From the IMG/VR virus record IMGVR_UViG_3300021478_000019, positions 53,511-117,510 of that record: a stretch of 64,000 nucleotides of DNA; one strand, written 5' to 3'. Each line of letters starts with the position of its first letter. Position 1 is the first letter of the stretch. The position numbers and the translations under genes are program-made. Source of the DNA: a virus. Below the pieces are notes generated by a model. The model saw only the letters and a list, made by a program, of their open reading frames with translations, had not been told where the DNA came from and did not search any database. Below, piece after piece: positions 5,944-18,597 of the stretch.

Positions 5944-6120
5944 GGGTCTCCTTGGTCTCGGGGGACTTGCGAGGGCTCTGACTACGAACCCTGGTCTGTG
6001 TCGAGGGGCGCGCTCCTTCCTGGCTAGGTGAAACAGTGGATCTGGCAACCTTAGTCGATGTACAGTTCCGAAAACCGGTCTGGGGAAGAGCAGTCTCCGA
6101 GTCAGGAAAGGGCGATTTTT

Positions 6121-6501
6121 ATGGCGAGACGCAGCGCTGCCGACACCCTCATCGAGGAGGCTGCCATCTTCCTGCGCTGCCGGGCCTATGGCCACAGCTG
6201 GGACGAATTTTTCCCCGACGACATGGAGCAGCCCTGGTACGGCTGGCGGCTGAGCCTGCGCTGCGTCCGCTGCGGCACGGAGCGCCATGACAACATCGAC
6301 TTCAAGGGCGCCATGATGAGCCGACGCTACATCCACCCGCTGGGCTACCTGACCCGTAAAGGCGACGCCAAACCGACCAGGACTGAGTTCCGTGAGGAGC
6401 TATTTATCAGCCTGCGTGCCAGACTGGAGAAGATCAACGCGGTGGGCGAAGACGCTGAGATCACGCCCATCAAGTCGGCCCGGAAAGCCAGGAGCGCATG
6501 A
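6121..6501 (+). CDS. Zn-binding phage protein (CxxxxH...CxxC)
   Basis: 'LRCRAYGHSW' and 'LRCVRCGTERHD'; first gene of the rightward operon. Confidence 0.75.
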   Translation: MARRSAADTLIEEAAIFLRCRAYGHSWDEFFPDDMEQPWYGWRLSLRCVRCGTERHDNIDFKGAMMSRRYIHPLGYLTRKGDAKPTRTEFREELFISLRARLEKINAVGEDAEITPIKSARKARSA

Positions 6502-7376
6502 CCACCCGTACCCGCACCCGCACCTCGACCAACGGCAAGGTGACCCACCGGGAGACGGTGGGCATCGAGGAGATCGACCCGGAGACGGCGCAGCGGTGGT
6601 TGGAGGGTAACGTCGATAACAGAGTCCTGCGGGAGTCTCGGGTCGTAAAGCTGGGTGGAATTCTTCAGCGGGACGAGTGGGAACTGACTGGCGACGCCAT
6701 TGTTTTCGATGACCAGGACGTGCTGCTCAACGGCCAACACCGGCTGAGCGCCATCGTGGTCACCGGAATACCGGCCCGGCTCCTGGTCCTCCGGGGGGTC
6801 CCCTCCAAGGCACAGGAGGTCATGGATCAGGGGTTGAGCCGGAACTTGGGTGACCAGCTGCATCGCCGCGGCGTGTCCTACGCCTTCGTGATCTCGGGGG
6901 GCCTGCACTGGCTGCACCAGATGCGCTACAACGAGGCCACCGGGGGCGCCCACTACGTGGACTCCGCGGAGCATCCCACCCTGCGCCAGCTGCTGGCCAT
7001 CCATGAGGAGACCGCCCCCCACCTGGAGGAGTTGGCGCCCTCCATCAACAAGCTGCGCTACTACACCAAGGTCCGTCCGGGCCCCACCCTGGCCCTGCGC
7101 TACCGCCTGGGTCAGATCGACGAGACCGAGGCCCAGCTGTTCTTCGACTCCTGGCGGGAGGGCACCGGCCTGGCCAAGGATGACCCCATCTTCCGGCTAC
7201 GGGAGTGGTGCATGGCTGACGCTCGCTTTCGCTCGACCAAGGGTCGGACGCCGGCCTACCGCTACGTGGCCTACGTACTGGTGGCCTGGAACCGCTGGCG
7301 GGACCAGGTGCCCATGCGCCAGCTGACCTGGCACTTCACCCCCAGTCAGAAGGACCCATGGCCGACACCCCACTGA
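6498..7376 (+). CDS. ParB/Srx-superfamily (DGQHR-like) protein
   Basis: 'NR.LRESRV..L...L....W.LTGDAIVFD....LLNGQHRLSAIV' motif. Confidence 0.8.
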   Translation: MTTRTRTRTSTNGKVTHRETVGIEEIDPETAQRWLEGNVDNRVLRESRVVKLGGILQRDEWELTGDAIVFDDQDVLLNGQHRLSAIVVTGIPARLLVLRGVPSKAQEVMDQGLSRNLGDQLHRRGVSYAFVISGGLHWLHQMRYNEATGGAHYVDSAEHPTLRQLLAIHEETAPHLEELAPSINKLRYYTKVRPGPTLALRYRLGQIDETEAQLFFDSWREGTGLAKDDPIFRLREWCMADARFRSTKGRTPAYRYVAYVLVAWNRWRDQVPMRQLTWHFTPSQKDPWPTPH

Positions 7377-8449
7377 CGTCTCGGCCCCGAGTGGGTAAGG
7401 CCCCTGGCGGGCGTCTGGCGAAAGGCACCGTCCCGCTCCCTGACGAAGTCGAGTCGCACCCGCGGGCCGGTAAGTGGAGTTGGGGTGGTGGTGACGGTGG
7501 TGACCCCTTCCTCCAGTCCCTGCGGCCCCAGGACGTGGCCCACCAGCGCCAGCAGCTGCTGCGCTGGTGGTCCCACCCCGGTGAGTGGCAGCACAAGTTC
7601 GCCCTCCATGGCCGGCGCAACATTCCCGGTTGGCTGGAGCATCCCGAACGGGAGGCCGAGGAGGTTCGCTGGTGGATGGAGGACACGTTCAGGAAGGCTG
7701 AGTTGTACTGGGTGAGCCCGGAGATGACCGACGTCATCACCACCCTGGCGCCCGGCATCCCCGACACCCTGCCCCAGCCTCCGGTGCCTCACGCCCTGGT
7801 CATGTTCGCCAAGTCCATCCCTGGCACCGACGCCGAGGACGGCAGCAACATCTACACCTCGGCGTTCCTGTGGAGCGACATCGACCTGTACAAGATCGGC
7901 CCTTGCATCGCTATGGAGAGCTACGCCTGGCGGGATTGGGTGGGCCTGTACCGGGGCCTCGACGACGAGGGCCAGCAGCTGTTCCGTGAGATCTACCCCA
8001 ACCGGCTCATGCCCACCGGGGGCTCGGAGTGGCCCATGGGTGCCCTGACCTCGGAGTTCGATACCGCCCCAGCTGAGGATGACCTGCAGAGGCAGTCCAT
8101 GGTGGAGGACCGCCGGCTGCTGTCGACCTTCTGGGCCCTGGCCTCTCAGAAGATTGTGATCGAGTCTCGTCACCAGCCCTCTCGGGCAGAGCGGCGTGCC
8201 GCCCAGCGGGAGGGTCGTCCCCTCGACGAGGTTCGTGTGATCCGGCTGCGGGAACCCGCCACCCGCAGCCGCGGTGATGCTGGTTCGGATGTGGAGTGGT
8301 CCCACCGGTGGATCGTCGGTAAACACTGGCGAAACCAGTGGTACCCCGCATCCGGCCAGCATCGCCCAAAGCTGATCGAGGCGTACCAGAAGGGCCCGGC
8401 TGACAAGCCTCTGGTGCTACGTGAGACAGTGCGAGCCTTGGTGCGGTAA
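7358..8449 (+). CDS. Conserved-type phage hypothetical protein
   Basis: 363 aa; C-terminal 'HRWIVGKHWRNQWYP...AYQKGP' motif of a kind I recognise from phage hypotheticals. Confidence 0.75.
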   Translation: MADTPLTSRPRVGKAPGGRLAKGTVPLPDEVESHPRAGKWSWGGGDGGDPFLQSLRPQDVAHQRQQLLRWWSHPGEWQHKFALHGRRNIPGWLEHPEREAEEVRWWMEDTFRKAELYWVSPEMTDVITTLAPGIPDTLPQPPVPHALVMFAKSIPGTDAEDGSNIYTSAFLWSDIDLYKIGPCIAMESYAWRDWVGLYRGLDDEGQQLFREIYPNRLMPTGGSEWPMGALTSEFDTAPAEDDLQRQSMVEDRRLLSTFWALASQKIVIESRHQPSRAERRAAQREGRPLDEVRVIRLREPATRSRGDAGSDVEWSHRWIVGKHWRNQWYPASGQHRPKLIEAYQKGPADKPLVLRETVRALVR

Positions 8450-8466
8450 TCAAGAAAAGGAGAGAA

Positions 8467-8739
8467 ATGACACTCGTATCCGAAGCCCAGGTTGACAACA
8501 TCGAGGAAGGGAAGCTGCTGTTCGTAATTCTTGACAAGACTGGCGACACCAAGCACATCTGGGACCGCAGCAATCCCGACGAGGTGGCCGAGGCCCGTGC
8601 CCTGTTCACCCGCATGACCGGTGAGCGCAAGTTCCAGGCGTGGTCGGTCACCAGGAAGGGTGACAAGGATCAGCGCATCACCGAGTTCGACCCCCAAGCT
8701 GAGAAGGTGATCTTCGCCCCGGCCCTGGTGGGCGGCTGA
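8467..8739 (+). CDS. Ubiquitin-like (beta-grasp, MoaD/ThiS-like) protein with C-terminal di-glycine
   Basis: AAGGAG RBS; predicted beta-beta-alpha-beta-beta-beta order; ends KVIFAPALVGG-stop. Confidence 0.75.
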   Translation: MTLVSEAQVDNIEEGKLLFVILDKTGDTKHIWDRSNPDEVAEARALFTRMTGERKFQAWSVTRKGDKDQRITEFDPQAEKVIFAPALVGG

Positions 8740-9359
8740 TGCCTCAGACCGGCTACTGGCCGCAGCAGTACTACAGCACCACCGCGGCCACCATCAACTA
8801 CACCCCGATCATCACCACCACAGCCATCAGCCCCAACACGATCTGGCAGAACTGGGTGAACACCTCGGCCACCACTATCACCTACGTTCCCACCTACTCC
8901 AACGAGGTGTGGCACAACTGGGCCAACCAGCTGAGCCAGTACGACTACCGGTACACGCTGCCGGCGCCGACGCCCGAAGCTATCCGTGAAGGCGAAGAGC
9001 GTTACGAGCGGCAGCGCCAGGAGCTACAGGCTGCCCGCACCCGTGCCCGTGTGCTGCTGGGCGAGTTCCTCAACGAGGGGCAGAAGACAGAGCTTGAGCG
9101 CCACGGTCGGTTCCATGTCACCGGGTCCAAGGGCCGGCGCTACTGCATCCGCACCAGCGGGCAGCAGGGCAACGTGGACCTGCTCACCGACAAGGGCGAC
9201 GTTCAGGCCACCTTGTGCGCCCACCCCCGTGGTGGCCTGCCTGACGGTGACGCCTGGCTGATGCAGCTGATTGAGATCCGTCATGACGAGGACCGTTTCC
9301 TGCACGTCGCCAACGTCCACCGTGGCCAGCTGCCTCGGGAGCTAGTCCGGGCGTACTGA
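8739..9359 (+). CDS. Hypothetical partner of the Ubl; T/N/W-rich N-terminus, coiled coil, C-terminal domain with CAHP motif
   Basis: TGATG coupling to the Ubl gene; 'TLCAHPRGGLPDGDAWLMQL...DEDRFLHVAN'. Confidence 0.8.
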   Translation: MPQTGYWPQQYYSTTAATINYTPIITTTAISPNTIWQNWVNTSATTITYVPTYSNEVWHNWANQLSQYDYRYTLPAPTPEAIREGEERYERQRQELQAARTRARVLLGEFLNEGQKTELERHGRFHVTGSKGRRYCIRTSGQQGNVDLLTDKGDVQATLCAHPRGGLPDGDAWLMQLIEIRHDEDRFLHVANVHRGQLPRELVRAY

Positions 9360-9360
9360 C

Positions 9361-9452
9361 CCATGGGAGGAATGCAGAGGGGTCGGCGTGTGGGATTGAT
9401 CACCCACCACTAGCCAGCGAGGAACGGCTGGCACCCTCTGCATCTCCTATGG
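9361..9452. other. Three-way-junction RNA structure between convergent genes (terminator or ncRNA)
   Basis: Outer stem CCATGGGAG..ATGCAGAGGG / CCCTCTGCAT-CTCCTATGG enclosing hairpins GTGGG/CCCAC and GCCAGC/GCTGGC. Confidence 0.55.
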
Positions 9453-9665
9453 CTCGGTGGTACCGCCCAGCGCCGCTGCGATCTCGGACACCTTGGCCTC
9501 GACCGCGGCCACCAGTTCGTCCACCTTGGCCTCGATGGCGGGCCGCACCTCGGCAGCGGCAGCCTGTACCGCGGTCTTGATTTCGGCAGCCTTGGCCTGG
9601 ACGCTGTCGATCAGGGCCCGGAGATCTGCGGCGACGGGGTTATCAGCAGGGGGAGTATCAGTCAT
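9447..9665 (-). CDS. Small Ala-rich helical protein
   Basis: MTDTPPADNPVAADLRALIDSVQAK...; TAGCAT -10 lies 7 nt upstream (leaderless). Confidence 0.65.
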   Translation of the reverse strand: MTDTPPADNPVAADLRALIDSVQAKAAEIKTAVQAAAAEVRPAIEAKVDELVAAVEAKVSEIAAALGGTTEP

Positions 9666-9694
9666 GATGTCGATGCTAATGCGGGAGGTCAACA

Positions 9695-9985
9695 GTGAAA
9701 GTCGAAGCCGTTCAATGCGACGCCAAGGGTTGCCCCAATATCGAGGTGCCCGAGGGGGCCGATCTGCCTTACGGCTGGTTGCTGGTGGATATCTACCAGG
9801 AGGGTGACGGCAACGTGGTGAACGGTGCCGTCTTTTGCTCCTGGGTCTGCTTGAGCGCCAACAGCCAGGCGCGCACCCCGGCGGCGCCGCTCAAGCGCAA
9901 GCGCCGCACCAGGGCCCAGATCGAGGCCGATGCGTTGGCTGCTACCCACGGCTCTGTCCCTGACCTGGAGATCCCCAGTGCCTGA
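9695..9985 (+). CDS. Zn-finger protein with basic 'KRKRRTRAQIEAD' tail
   Basis: GGAGG RBS; CxxxxC...FCSWVC. Confidence 0.7.
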   Translation: MKVEAVQCDAKGCPNIEVPEGADLPYGWLLVDIYQEGDGNVVNGAVFCSWVCLSANSQARTPAAPLKRKRRTRAQIEADALAATHGSVPDLEIPSA

Positions 9986-10151
9986 CGTACCGGACAGCCT
10001 GGAGGCGTTCCCTCCGGTGTCTGAGCTAGGCGGCGCCATCGGGCGCACGGCCTCTCCAGCCTGCAAGCAGGGCCAGCATGACCTGTGCCAGGACGACAGC
10101 TGCCAGTGCCGCCATCATGAGCGGCTCTGGTACGACCGCGTCATCTCCTGA
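9978..10151 (+). CDS. Small Cys/His-rich protein
   Basis: GTG at 9978; 'ACKQGQHDLCQDDSCQCRHH'. Confidence 0.6.
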   Translation: MPDVPDSLEAFPPVSELGGAIGRTASPACKQGQHDLCQDDSCQCRHHERLWYDRVIS

Positions 10152-10624
10152 TGCACCAGGAGACCTTCAACCTGGTCTGCGTGATCTTGGAGGACTCAGC
10201 CGGCAAGGACGTCGAGGAGATCGCCGCCACCATCCTGCGAGATCTGGGCTTCCAGGGGGAGGAGATCCTCGACCACCTGGACCCGCCCAAGGGGATTGGG
10301 CGCTGGCTGGAGTCACACGGGCTGTCCCTGGTGGCCACCCATGAGGTGGCCCCACCGCAGGAGTGGGATGAGCTAGAACAAGAGGCCCACCTGGAGGAGG
10401 CTCGACTTGAGGGGGGGACTCCCAAGGGAGAGATACCGTCACTCCAGGTGGGCGATTACGTAGAGTACAAGACCGCCCCACAGGGTCCGCGCAAGGTGTC
10501 TCAGCTGGGCTCGGGGGCGGTGGTGGAGGTCTCCGACCAGGGTGGGCTCATCGTGGTGCAGGGCAGCCCCCACGATGTGTACCTGCGCCCTGGTGACGGA
10601 GACACCATCAACGTGGTCCGCTAA
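10151..10624 (+). CDS. Hypothetical protein, possible C-terminal SH3/KOW-like barrel
   Basis: TGATG coupling; 'LQVGDYVEY...GAVVEV'. Confidence 0.65.
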   Translation: MHQETFNLVCVILEDSAGKDVEEIAATILRDLGFQGEEILDHLDPPKGIGRWLESHGLSLVATHEVAPPQEWDELEQEAHLEEARLEGGTPKGEIPSLQVGDYVEYKTAPQGPRKVSQLGSGAVVEVSDQGGLIVVQGSPHDVYLRPGDGDTINVVR

Positions 10625-11607
10625 CCCCGCCGTAGCCGGCGCCGCGGCTCAGCTGGGGGCTCGGGCACCTCGACGACGGACGGAACGGGCTGCTCGGGAG
10701 TCATGTTGAAGGCCACGCCCTCGACGGTTTTCCCCAGGTCTGTGAGAAAGCTGTCGAAAACGTCGGACATGCGGGCCACGAAGGTGTTGCCGAACCGGTC
10801 GAGGATGTCCTCCAGGCCGGCCCAGTCCGGGGCCACGATCACGTCGGTCTCCTCGACCACGGTGACGACCTCGGGCTCAGCTGGCTCCTCCTCGGGCTCC
10901 TCTGCAGCTTCCTCCTCGACCCCGCTCTGAGCAGCCAGGATGTCACTGACCATCTGCTCCCGGCTCTTGCGAGGAGGCAGGTTCAGGGTGGCAGCCACCT
11001 CCTTGAGCCGCAGCATGGACATCTCCTTCAGGTCGGTGCGGGAGTAGATGTCGCCGGCTTCGGCCTCCTCGGTCGCTTCCTCGGTGGCCTCGGGCCGGAT
11101 GGCGGTGACGGTGGCCTCGACGGGCTCGGCGTCTTCGTCCCAGCCCATGGGGGTCAGGGCGTCGCTCAACTCGTAGACGGCGATCTCGTCGTCGAGGAAC
11201 TGGCTGGAGATCCGCTCCATCTCGTCGTTGCGCTCGTCGTCCCACAGGATGAACAGGGCTGACTCGCTGGCCTCCTTCAGGATCTGCTCCATCTGCAGTA
11301 GGGGGTTGTCGATGTTGTAGGTGCGGGAGGCGCTGTTGGCCACCTCGGTGAAGGTGCGCCGGGCCCGGTCGTCGGGCTTGGTGATCACCTCGTAGGGGAT
11401 CTCAAATTCCTTGGCCGAGGCGGCGTAGTCGGCCAGGGTCTGGGTGAACTCGTCGGCGGTCAGCACGAAGACCCAGCGGACCTTGTCGTCCTTGGACACC
11501 TTGCCATCGATGAACTCCTCGATGAGGGTGGTGCCGTGTTCAACGTCCATGGCTCCGGTGCCGAAGAAGCCGATGGTCAGGGCTGGGGTGGATGCTCGGG
11601 CAGGCAA
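10621..11607 (-). CDS. Acidic protein with Rho-N/HeH-like motif
   Basis: TTG after AAGGGAG; 'DLKEMSMLRLKEVAATLNL...SREQMVSDILAAQ'; Glu-rich linkers; ends PRRRLRRG. Confidence 0.75.
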   Translation of the reverse strand: MPARASTPALTIGFFGTGAMDVEHGTTLIEEFIDGKVSKDDKVRWVFVLTADEFTQTLADYAASAKEFEIPYEVITKPDDRARRTFTEVANSASRTYNIDNPLLQMEQILKEASESALFILWDDERNDEMERISSQFLDDEIAVYELSDALTPMGWDEDAEPVEATVTAIRPEATEEATEEAEAGDIYSRTDLKEMSMLRLKEVAATLNLPPRKSREQMVSDILAAQSGVEEEAAEEPEEEPAEPEVVTVVEETDVIVAPDWAGLEDILDRFGNTFVARMSDVFDSFLTDLGKTVEGVAFNMTPEQPVPSVVEVPEPPAEPRRRLRRG

Positions 11608-16713: not shown

Positions 16714-18597
16714 TTAAATTCCTCCCGTCGCAGTCACGGTGACGTTGTTGGCCTGGGGAATTTCGTAGACGTTGCAGACCACGTCACCGACGCTCAGGGG
16801 AGTGTTCTCATGCCGGCTCAGGACCGTGACCTGGCAGTAGTCCACGCCCTCGACGGCTTGCACGTTGTGGTACACGCTGGACACAGTGACCCGGTAGCCG
16901 AAGTCGACGACGGAGAACAGCATGAGGTTGTAGATGGCCGCGATGGTGTTGGCCCTGACGCTGGCCTGGTTGTACTGGGGCAACACCTGGATCGCTACCG
17001 TCACATCCACCGGCACATACCCGACCTGGATGGCACCCAGCTTGTTGTACTGCGGCGCCAGGATTTGGACCGAGGTGCCCACCATCTTCTTGTCATCCAG
17101 GTAGCCGGTGTAGGCCGAGTTGGTGATGGAGGGGGTGAGGTTGGCGACCGCAGTGTTCAAGGCTGAGGGCGGGTTGATGAAGTCCCCGGTGGGGTGGATA
17201 TAGATGTTGACGCTGCTGTAGGCCGTCGAGGTGGCGGCAGCCTTGGCCACGCTGGGGTTGTTGAGGACCAGGGCGGCGTAGTCGTCGAGGGTGACCGCCC
17301 GGTTGATGGCCGTGATCGACAGGGGAGCGTGGATGCGGATGTGATCGAGGGTCTCGGCGTCGGCGCCTCCCGACGCACCGGCGGGATTGGTGACGGCGAC
17401 GACGTTGGAGATATTGGGAAGAGCGGTGACCAGGTTGGTCAAGGTGTTGGCCGACACGTTCCCAGCGGCGCCCCCACCTATCGTATATGCCGCGGTGATG
17501 GTGGATCCAGGGATGGGTACTCGACCATTTATCCCGTCACCGAAGCTGACCGTGACCACCCCGTTGGCGTCGGTGTTGAGGGTGTAGGCCAACTCGGTGG
17601 ACATGGCGTCGACCAGGCGCTGAAAATAGTTCCAGGTGGCCGGCCCGCCCCCTTCATCGATGGTGATTATTACGCTGCCGTCCACCACCGGAGTCTGGAA
17701 CAGGGTGTAGCTCTGCGCCGGCAAGCCAGTGGACGTGCCAATGACCTCACCGGAGGTGCTGACGCCGTGCTGGGCCGGGACACCACCGCCGGGCTGGGGC
17801 GGCATGGTATTGGCGGTGTAGACGGCGCTGGGGACAGCTGGCTGGTAGGTGACCGTGATGGCCACCCCGTTGGCGGGCTTGGCCCCATGCACCCCGTCAC
17901 CGAACTGGATGGTGTTCGGTAGGGGCGAGCCCACCACCGTGAACATGGTGGCGGTGGCTACTTGGCCCGCCAGGTTGTTGCCGGGAGCCAAGGTCCAGGT
18001 GGCGCCGCCCACTGTGACGGTCTGGTTGGCGCCGCCACCGTTGAAGTAATACGGTCCCTGATTCAGCAGGATCTGCTGACCGGCCAGGTTGGTGCCCGTG
18101 GCGGTCTGGGTGGTCGGCGTGAAGTCGCCCCAGATGTAGGCGTCCTGGGTGGTCTCAAAGGTGGTGGCGCCGGTACTGGTCAGGTCTCCTTGCACCTGGG
18201 TGCCCGCCGGGATGAGGACCGTGGGGCAGGGCGCGGTGACACTGAACTGCAACATGACCAGAGCGGAGACGTTGCCGTAGGGGGTGTAGTCGAGCAGCGA
18301 GGCCAGGTTGAGGACCGACTGGCGCTGCTGGGCCGTGGCCAGGAAGGCTTCGTTGGCGATCCGGTCGCTGTAGAAGTTGATGATGTCGCCCATGTAGCTG
18401 AACAACTCGATCAACACGATGCCGAAGTCGCCGGGAGAACGGTCAGTCCACTCGGGCAGATAGGTCGGGATCAGGTTGATCAGGTCGTTGACCAGGCTGC
18501 CGTAATCCCGGCTGGTGTAGTCGACCTGGGGGATGGTGGACAGGCTCGGTATGACATCGGCCAAGGTTCCCGCGATGGCACTGGGCACCATGGTCAT
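16714..18597 (-). CDS. Baseplate J-like protein
   Basis: 'DYTSRDY...PEWTDRSPGDFGIVLIELFSY...NEAFLATA', 'FGDG..G..P', 'GGADAETLD...RAVTLDDY'. Confidence 0.93.
   Translation of the reverse strand: MTMVPSAIAGTLADVIPSLSTIPQVDYTSRDYGSLVNDLINLIPTYLPEWTDRSPGDFGIVLIELFSYMGDIINFYSDRIANEAFLATAQQRQSVLNLASLLDYTPYGNVSALVMLQFSVTAPCPTVLIPAGTQVQGDLTSTGATTFETTQDAYIWGDFTPTTQTATGTNLAGQQILLNQGPYYFNGGGANQTVTVGGATWTLAPGNNLAGQVATATMFTVVGSPLPNTIQFGDGVHGAKPANGVAITVTYQPAVPSAVYTANTMPPQPGGGVPAQHGVSTSGEVIGTSTGLPAQSYTLFQTPVVDGSVIITIDEGGGPATWNYFQRLVDAMSTELAYTLNTDANGVVTVSFGDGINGRVPIPGSTITAAYTIGGGAAGNVSANTLTNLVTALPNISNVVAVTNPAGASGGADAETLDHIRIHAPLSITAINRAVTLDDYAALVLNNPSVAKAAATSTAYSSVNIYIHPTGDFINPPSALNTAVANLTPSITNSAYTGYLDDKKMVGTSVQILAPQYNKLGAIQVGYVPVDVTVAIQVLPQYNQASVRANTIAAIYNLMLFSVVDFGYRVTVSSVYHNVQAVEGVDYCQVTVLSRHENTPLSVGDVVCNVYEIPQANNVTVTATGGI

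Follow-up and report, generated by a model that had tools for sequence, protein, structure and literature searches.

A mobile two-gene phage module that pairs a Gly-Gly-ended protein with an invariant-cysteine partner, a candidate for minimal ubiquitin-like chemistry

Can two small adjacent phage genes constitute a ubiquitin-like protein and the enzyme that handles its C-terminus? The question is raised by positions 8467-9359 of a 64,000-nucleotide stretch of viral DNA (the window), which represents positions 53,511-117,510, the final 64 kb, of the 117,510-bp IMG/VR virus record IMGVR_UViG_3300021478_000019, a record that is 100% complete according to CheckV. The first gene encodes a 90-residue protein that stops directly after Gly-Gly (the GG protein) and the second a 206-residue protein (the partner). 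A sequence-only reading of the window had proposed that the GG protein is a ubiquitin-like protein of the beta-grasp type, that a Cys-His-Pro motif in the partner provides a cysteine that could accept it as a thioester, and that the pair operates without an activating enzyme (E1) or JAB peptidase of its own. This proposal is supported in part. We found the pair to be a widespread two-gene unit, mobile between unrelated phages. The explanation that we favour, though tentatively, is that the partner is a minimal enzyme resembling a ubiquitin-conjugating enzyme (E2), which takes the carboxyl group of Gly90 on Cys160.

Co-inheritance of the two genes

The open reading frames (ORFs), the strong ribosome-binding site (AAGGAG, 4 nt before the ATG), the Gly-Gly-stop and the TGATG coupling on which the sequence-only reading was built are all present in the DNA (Table 1), and the two genes are translationally coupled. 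At homologous junctions, with automatic start choice, the partner start falls between -8 and +17 nt of the GG-protein stop in 21 of 27 cases, and the gaps across loci extend from -8 to +327 nt. A programmed frameshift fusing both ORFs was rejected, as the junction geometry varies by locus and positions 8730-8739 show no slippery heptamer.

Scanning IMG/VR by pattern gave 26 loci whose small protein is 33-71% identical to that of the window. The gene adjacency suggested by the sequence-only reading held at every one of them, a partner homolog lying directly 3' of the GG protein on the same strand in all 26 (one is truncated by the end of its contig). The G+C content of pair-bearing loci spans 38% to 66%, and within 8 kb on either side only the two ORF families of the pair are common to all 27 loci, the other neighbours being confined to 8-9 close relatives. 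A third ORF cluster, present in 24 of the 27 loci, is not a gene and represents the opposite-strand ORF shadow of the pair. We also compared six phage genomes, each at least 92% complete (117.5, 81.7, 70.1, 40.8, 47.3 and 82.7 kb; 3,874 ORFs of at least 60 residues), by BLASTP clustering. The GG and partner families alone are present in all six; the runner-up cluster occurs in three. The idea of a further gene inherited with the pair, for instance an unusual adenylating enzyme, was discarded, none being found in more than three of the six genomes by BLASTP, which is blind to very distant homologs. The two genes are a self-contained, horizontally mobile phage module. At one locus (L022:7082-9251) two GG-protein/partner pairs stand in tandem, and the first partner is short (122 residues) and lacks the low-complexity N-terminus.

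Searches of 50,697 phage records gave no match by megablast with positions 6000-11000, no match at E <= 1 by tblastn with the partner C-domain, and two records only by tblastn with the small protein. The pair is annotated in KX853510 (Virus Rctr197k) as the hypothetical proteins Rctr197k_113 and _112, and this Rctr197k pair (L027, KX853510.1 111658-123855, and L028) is flanked by two annotated CRISPR arrays and transposase-like genes. In the bacterial genomes searched the pair is rare: narrow peptide patterns found a single locus in species-representative genomes, on a 58.9-kb contig of a metagenome-assembled genome, and the partner profile matched three of 401 Planctomycetota genomes, with a GG-ended small ORF directly upstream in each. 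Two Planctomycetota loci (L051:653-1785 and L052:772-1782) carry very divergent pairs, in which the small protein ends in PPVTGG or PPVVGG and a different N-terminal region of about 200 residues replaces the Trp/Thr-rich one of the partner; a Cys-rich protein with a hydrophobic C-terminus follows. Partner-like clusters in the Atlas are labelled mostly Bacteria/Chloroflexota, which is the only hint of Chloroflexota copies.

The surroundings of the pair were surveyed in 12 distant loci (142 ORFs within 5 kb, from crude longest-ORF gene calls), where 75 PHROG families were matched. Among the 25 of these that were listed, most are replication, recombination and nucleotide-metabolism genes, including a DNA polymerase exonuclease subunit, a helicase, RecE-like and Erf-like proteins, dCMP deaminase, dihydrofolate reductase, methyltransferases and integrases. 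Because of these neighbourhoods, we suggest that the pair is expressed with early or DNA-metabolism genes and not as part of the virion; a structural-protein reading was rejected, since only two head or virion families occur among the 25 listed of the 75.

The two proteins and their predicted complex

The GG protein belongs to a large family, of which an exhaustive HMMER search through 1.84 billion cluster representatives (50% identity level) recovered 770 at E <= 0.001, 72 of them at E <= 1e-10. When 32 of the 65 close homologs found by a word-indexed search were aligned (A1), the terminal GG, P85, F74-D75 and G26-D27 proved invariant (32/32). Among the best 150 of the 770 representatives, 129 stop at GG and 14 continue beyond it, with extensions of between 1 and about 150 residues; AG or EG is the ending in six, and the remaining one has none of these endings. 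The terminal GG is thus not a chance ending, given its invariance in A1 and the 129 representatives that stop there, and its conservation, which the sequence-only reading had regarded as decisive, is borne out. In a broader alignment (A4, 113 of the 150 listed representatives) GG is invariant by selection, as C-terminal extensions, non-GG ends and long N-terminal extensions were excluded. One family member, P0149 (238 residues), is a natural fusion of a GG domain (11-88) with a partner domain (112-224; E 7e-14) that retains GG at the junction (GGAL...). P0131 is apparently a truncated form of this type of fusion, and P0230 carries two GG-type domains in tandem, the second alone ending in GG.

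The AlphaFold2 (AF2) model of the small protein (pLDDT 79.1, pTM 0.70) has the order b-b-a-b-b-b. In Foldseek comparisons with the PDB the leading rows (ISG15, FAT10, NEDD8, ubiquitin, SUMO and PB1) are all beta-grasp, and MoaD is among the weak rows; the best E value is 0.021, with TM values of only 0.3-0.44, and no row reaches E <= 0.001. The predicted strand and helix order and the identity of the leading rows would agree with the beta-grasp proposal, but the rows themselves are weak. The topology is predicted to be beta-grasp-like, with a modelled geometry that fits no solved family well and does not allow placement within the beta-grasp world. By sequence, the small protein has no match in Pfam, PHROG, NCBIfam or PADLOC (E <= 1 or 0.1), and the A1 profile found nothing relevant among PDB sequences. 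When 113 members were compared with Pfam (E <= 1), 57 families were matched, none by more than six members, and no ubiquitin, ThiS or MoaD family is among the 25 listed.

For the partner, 63 close homologs were found, 27 of them aligned as A2, and 153 by profile; none carries a name. The two NxxWxNWxN repeats noticed in the sequence are present (NTIWQNWVN and NEVWHNWAN), as is the C-terminal motif stretch, TLCAHPRGGLPDGDAWLMQ...DEDRFLHVAN. Over 130 partner homologs the N-terminal region is variable in length (mean 76 residues, range 2-119) and constant in character: T 18.8%, Q 8.7%, Y 8.5%, N 7.4%, S 7.3% and W 6.7%, with K at 0.3% and D+E+K+R together at 6.2%. At least one WxxW is found in 115 of the 130. 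Conservation in the C-terminal part is far stricter, as Cys160, Pro168 and Asn192 are kept in all 131 homologs compared, Asp171 in 130, Glu184 in 128 and Asn145 in 122; Gln176 (119), His162 (113) and Pro163 (111) are less strict. The cysteine of the proposed Cys-His-Pro motif is accordingly invariant, but its histidine and proline are not, and because of these lower counts the motif reduces to an invariant Cys and a Pro-x-x-Asp eight residues on.

An AF2 model of partner residues 78-206, made from an alignment of 25 sequences including very distant loci, has a mean pLDDT of 93.5 and a pTM of 0.82. It begins with a long and then a short helix, followed by a four-strand meander in which Cys160 closes strand 4; a loop leads on to Pro168, and two further helices, a short strand and a final helix complete the domain. 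No PDB entry was matched by Foldseek at E <= 0.001 (best E 0.21), and the top row, a thioredoxin/A151R-like fold (E 0.21, TM 0.26), was discarded as noise. RWD, E2 or UEV-like domains account for nine of the top 12 structural rows, the best being mostly non-catalytic RWD or UEV domains, and the predicted fold of the C-domain is weakly UBC/RWD/UEV-like. Its structural relatives in BFVD come from other phages only: A0A1P8DIP4 (E 2.3e-5, TM 0.69), A0A1P8DIR1 and a 397-residue protein of Agrobacterium phage Atu_ph07. Sequence comparisons gave no E2 family. The 25 members compared with Pfam (E <= 1) matched 18 families, none of them UQ_con, RWD, UEV or Prok-E2; the partner of the window has just a sub-threshold match to DUF6894 in Pfam (14.8 bits against a cut-off of 24.1) and is unnamed in PHROG, NCBIfam and PADLOC; and the A2 profile found nothing relevant among PDB sequences. 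Prok-E2_B (PF14461) was matched in just three of the 401 Planctomycetota genomes, too few to build a comparison profile. The catalytic cysteine of a canonical E2 lies downstream of an HPN motif. That motif is absent from the partner, where the invariant Cys instead ends strand 4 in the order C-x-H-P.

A cysteine of this kind, next to a family in which some members continue past GG, could also belong to a peptidase of the deubiquitinase type that trims GG-protein precursors or strips the GG protein off conjugates. Exposure of GG would require cleavage in the 14 of 150 representatives that are extended after it, and in the at least one fused to a partner, and the E2 of E2-only systems is reported to have such a protease activity (10.1101/2022.05.25.493364). 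We would nevertheless put very little faith in a peptidase here: 129 of 150 family members need no processing, no invariant His stands beside the Cys (His162 is kept in 113 of 131), and no peptidase fold is found among the top structural rows.

The two proteins were co-folded, with the partner C-domain supplied as alignment A3 and the small protein as A1. Three runs scored 0.80, 0.80 and 0.78, compared with 0.00 for all three controls; the mark used for such scores is reached by 58 of 80 solved complexes and by 2 of 110 mismatched pairs, counts that hold only roughly with custom alignments. The runs share at least 96% of their contacts (87-92 in number), with a partner pLDDT of at least 83. 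The predicted interface comprises residues 8-10, 20, 22-27, 59, 61, 65, 68-70, 82 and 84-90 of the small protein and residues 18-33, 66-67, 83-91, 94, 97-99, 101-106, 110 and 113-115 of the partner model, which in full-length numbering include Cys160-Pro168, Asp171, Gln176 and Asn192. In this prediction tail residues 84-90 contact the Cys160-Pro168 loop, in the very place where the sequence-only reading had looked for the GG tail, and the invariant tail of the small protein is ringed by almost all of the residues that are invariant in the partner.

An interface of this size would also be expected of an obligate heterodimer that is purely non-covalent, an explanation that we consider rather unlikely and still the most serious competitor. 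Here a non-catalytic UEV/RWD-like clamp (or one that is MoaE-like in its logic) would bury the GG tail, whose small residues fit a narrow groove; Cys160 would be structural or redox-sensing, and the complex would act as an adaptor or scaffold through the helix and the Trp/Thr-rich region. The extent and confidence of the predicted contacts, the mostly non-catalytic RWD and UEV domains among the best fold rows of the partner, the lack of a conserved acceptor Lys and a translational coupling that suits 1:1 stoichiometry are all consistent with it, as are the absence of an E1, of a JAB peptidase and of a third gene common to the six genomes. A clamp accounts less readily for two observations: 129 of the 150 divergent representatives stop exactly at GG, and all 131 homologs compared keep the Cys, together with the Asn and Asp that surround the tail, a pattern typical of chemistry at a C-terminus and not of a groove alone.

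Capture of the Gly-Gly end and its activation

In the covalent, E2-like explanation, the 90-residue beta-grasp-like (ubiquitin-like) domain would expose a free Gly-Gly carboxyl end to a partner composed of an uncharged, flexible Thr/Trp-rich N-terminus, a long helix and a putative UBC/RWD-like C-domain. In the predicted tight 1:1 complex, the last seven residues of the small protein would lie in a partner groove lined by Cys160, Pro168, Asp171, Gln176 and Asn192. Cys160 may then accept the Gly90 carboxyl as an acyl (thioester) intermediate and pass it on, the GG protein being transferred to itself or to a target recruited by the flexible N-terminus. The Trp/Thr-rich arm and the long helix may serve in the recruitment of a target or partner, or in oligomerisation. 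The thioester role first suggested for this cysteine would fit its invariance and the predicted placement of the tail on it; the partner sequence has neither an HPN motif nor a match to an E2 family. We infer that the Gly90 carboxyl is captured on Cys160 and then handed on.

Several considerations weigh against this explanation. Energy is the main difficulty, since a free carboxylate needs activation. Members that extend past GG (14 of 150) and the fused form would suit a transpeptidation like that of the E2-only cyclic oligonucleotide-based antiphage signalling systems (CBASS), but the 129 that stop at GG would not. Moreover, the large and confident predicted interface would be at least as compatible with a stable tail clamp that is non-covalent, and it is for this reason that we hold the covalent explanation no more than tentatively and give the clamp the weight stated above.

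The source of activation was sought in the phages themselves. ThiF (PF00899) has no match in the whole 117,510-bp record or in ten other records at least 90% complete (0/11), and the sole ThiF match in 21 records is an ORF of the 197-kb KX853510, about 59 kb from its pair. Prok-JAB (PF14464) was matched in none of 13 records, this phage included, of which 11 are at least 90% complete. Both models give matches in most control genomes. The absence of E1 and JAB genes noted for the window hence extends to the entire record. Activation may be supplied by a host adenylating enzyme of the ThiF/MoeB type, or may be E1-free as in E2-only CBASS.

A phage protein that ends in GG and has no E1 of its own may also act against host enzymes. 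Alone or held by its partner, it might mimic bacterial ubiquitin-like proteins or the tails of CD-NTases (nucleotidyltransferases of the cGAS/DncV type), and titrate or poison the E1 or E2 of Bil, Bub or type II CBASS, or host ThiF/MoeB. The module is phage-borne and mobile between unrelated phages, and bacterial ubiquitin-like conjugation is reported to act against phages (10.1101/2023.09.04.556158, PMC11601596). This decoy role nonetheless appears improbable, as a strictly co-inherited Cys partner would be superfluous for a simple decoy, and carriers of 38% to 66% G+C imply hosts that need not all possess such defences. PADLOC matched neither the pair nor any of the five neighbouring ORFs compared with it, and the neighbourhoods, with their replication, recombination and nucleotide-metabolism genes, have no link to defence genes.

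A third use of a GG end is sulfur transfer. Host MoeB/ThiF and a sulfurtransferase could thiocarboxylate the GG protein, as with ThiS, MoaD and Urm1, and sulfur or persulfide would be relayed to or via Cys160. We judge this decidedly improbable. Neither the window protein nor the 25 families listed for the 113 members include a ThiS or MoaD match in Pfam, and the partner architecture of flexible region, long helix and small domain is not enzyme-like. No thiamine or molybdenum cofactor (Moco) context, rhodanese or ThiF was seen in the phage, although thiamine, Moco and cysteine pathway genes were not specifically searched.

Returning to capture by the partner, its fullest version would be a minimal, virus-borne two-gene tagging system without a dedicated E1, in which Cys160 captures the GG end directly or via the universal host ThiF/MoeB, and targets are chosen by the Trp/Thr-rich arm early in infection. 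Taken as a whole, this version seems to us unlikely.

Phage context and relation to known systems

In the window, the pair is the last element of a + strand block of closely packed ORFs (6058-6501, 6498-7376 and 7358-8449, then the pair), the first three of which matched only PHROGs 4480, 5931 and 15934, all of unknown function. The 292-residue product of 6498-7376 (PHROG 5931, E 1.6e-46) has no Pfam match and contains LLNGQHRL, which resembles the DGxHR motif of ParB/sulfiredoxin-type nucleases. ORF 7358-8449 (363 residues), immediately 5' of the pair, is common only to the 8-9 closest relatives and absent from distant pair carriers. An Ala-rich ORF of 81 residues (9447-9692, - strand) converges on the 3' end of the partner gene and has only weak, sub-threshold apolipoprotein-like matches. 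Among the wider neighbours (Table 1) are genes of unknown-function PHROGs and genes for an integrase, a lysin and a baseplate, and no CD-NTase/effector operon. Because of the large serine recombinase/integrase the phage is probably temperate. The Tail_P2_I-like and baseplate J/wedge genes indicate a contractile-tail baseplate module convergent on the operon of the pair, and by this gene content the phage is of the contractile-tail type. The LysM protein, whose C-terminus has a sub-threshold transglycosylase-like match (PF06737, 21.6 bits against a cut-off of 27), is likely a lysin for a Gram-positive-type host.

Table 1. Features of the gene pair and its surroundings, in window positions
Feature	Position	Strand	Basis or remark
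Shine-Dalgarno-like AAGGAG	8457-8462	+	Read from sequence; 4 nt ahead of small-protein ATG
Small GG protein, 90 aa, ends ...KVIFAPALVGG-TGA	8467-8739	+	ORF call
Small-protein tail Pro85-Ala-Leu-Val-Gly89-Gly90	8719-8736	+	P85, G89 and G90 invariant in A1
TGATG stop/start overlap	8737-8741	+	A of small-protein TGA (8737-8739) is first base of partner ATG (8739)
Partner protein, 206 aa	8739-9359	+	ORF call
Partner residues 1-76, uncharged low-complexity, two WxxW (NTIWQNWVN, NEVWHNWAN)	8739-8966	+	Composition
Partner residues ~79-110, long Arg/Glu-rich helix, possible coiled coil	8973-9068	+	AF2 model helix 2-33
Partner residues ~113-206, compact alpha/beta C-domain (helix, four-strand meander, Cys loop, helices)	9075-9356	+	Weakly UBC/RWD/UEV-like (predicted)
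Invariant Cys160 codon, end of strand 4	9216-9218	+	Cys 131/131; model residue 83, in predicted interface
Pro168 and Asp171 codons (P-x-x-D after Cys loop)	9240-9251	+	P168 131/131, D171 130/131; both in predicted interface
Invariant Asn192 codon	9312-9314	+	131/131; model residues 113-115 in predicted interface
Large serine recombinase, 480 aa	3413-4855	+	Resolvase, Recombinase and Zn_ribbon_recom domains; PHROG 95 (integrase), E 1.8e-52
LysM + transglycosylase-like protein, 362 aa	5248-6336	-	LysM E 7e-9; PHROG label transglycosylase/endolysin
Tail_P2_I-like protein, 1004 aa	12100-15114	-	Family matches
Baseplate J/wedge protein	16714-18597	-	Family matches

To our knowledge, the ubiquitin-like conjugation so far described in prokaryotes is bacterial defence, in type II CBASS, Bil and Bub. 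An E1 is part of each of these systems except E2-only CBASS, where a lone E2 acts on its own CD-NTase. By analogy, the closest working model for the phage module would be E2-only CBASS, with Bil and Bub as looser parallels. The module belongs to none of these systems, as it is without a CD-NTase, effector, E1, peptidase or any sequence match.

In E2-only CBASS, as reported (10.1101/2022.05.25.493364; PMC12948482), the lone E2 is covalently linked to the C-terminal glycine of the neighbouring CD-NTase, and purified CdnG and E2 form a covalent complex in vitro that is stable in sodium dodecyl sulphate. The CdnG tail lies in an E2 pocket beside Cys101, the E2 removes the residues after a conserved glycine, and the helix plus beta-sheet motif at the C-terminus of CdnG that recruits it is described as ubiquitin-like (10.1101/2022.05.25.493364; PMC12948482). 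The phage pair resembles this type II 'short' system in having two adjacent genes with no E1 and no JAB and a glycine-ended tail beside a partner Cys in a stable heterodimer with extensive contacts, which for the phage pair are predicted only. It differs in that its glycine-ended protein is a free-standing 90-residue domain and not the tail of a nucleotidyltransferase, in being phage-borne without a CD-NTase or effector gene, and in a partner with no E2-family sequence match that has a low-complexity N-terminus and a long helix. Most members of the phage family, furthermore, end at GG and leave no residue to cleave, and the Cys-proximal His reported as essential in that E2 is not invariant in the phage partner.

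Bil (BilABCD) and Bub (BubA/B/C/D/E) are bacterial defence operons that are reported always to combine an E1 with a JAB or serine peptidase (PMC11601596, PMC11601603, 10.1101/2023.09.04.556158). The present module, in contrast, resides in phages, and ThiF and Prok-JAB are each found in 0 of 11 near-complete phage records (DUF6527 was not searched). The reported Ubl-E2 fusion of type I Bub parallels the rare fusion of GG domain and partner in P0149. In predicted topology the partner is like the UBC superfold of E2 and of non-catalytic RWD and UEV domains, with an N-terminal helix, a four-strand antiparallel meander, a Pro-containing loop and helices. The pair is also like MoaD-MoaE and ThiS pairs and Urm1 in its small beta-grasp-like domain ending in GG, with a tail predicted to be buried in the product of the neighbouring gene, but it has no pathway context, no phage ThiF/MoeB and no ThiS/MoaD sequence match. 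MoaE is not among the 50 structural rows listed for the partner, which does not exclude a likeness to MoaE. A search of full-text literature, in which the supplementary family lists of the Bil, Bub and CBASS papers were not covered, found no description of such a phage-encoded pair.

If true, the two-gene tagging system would form a third, phage-side branch of prokaryotic ubiquitin-like conjugation, and the pair may be a free-standing relative of the CdnG-tail/E2 pair of E2-only CBASS. Strictly paired GG and Cys proteins that are the sole genes common to unrelated phages would place chemistry of this kind, or an imitation of it by tail clamping, on the side of the virus. With 90 and about 130 structured residues, the pair would also be a very small system in which to ask how a glycine carboxylate is captured without a dedicated activating enzyme. 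Should the complex prove non-covalent, the pair still represents a large unannotated family, with 770 cluster representatives at 50% identity, that sits amid the early and DNA-metabolism genes of phages.

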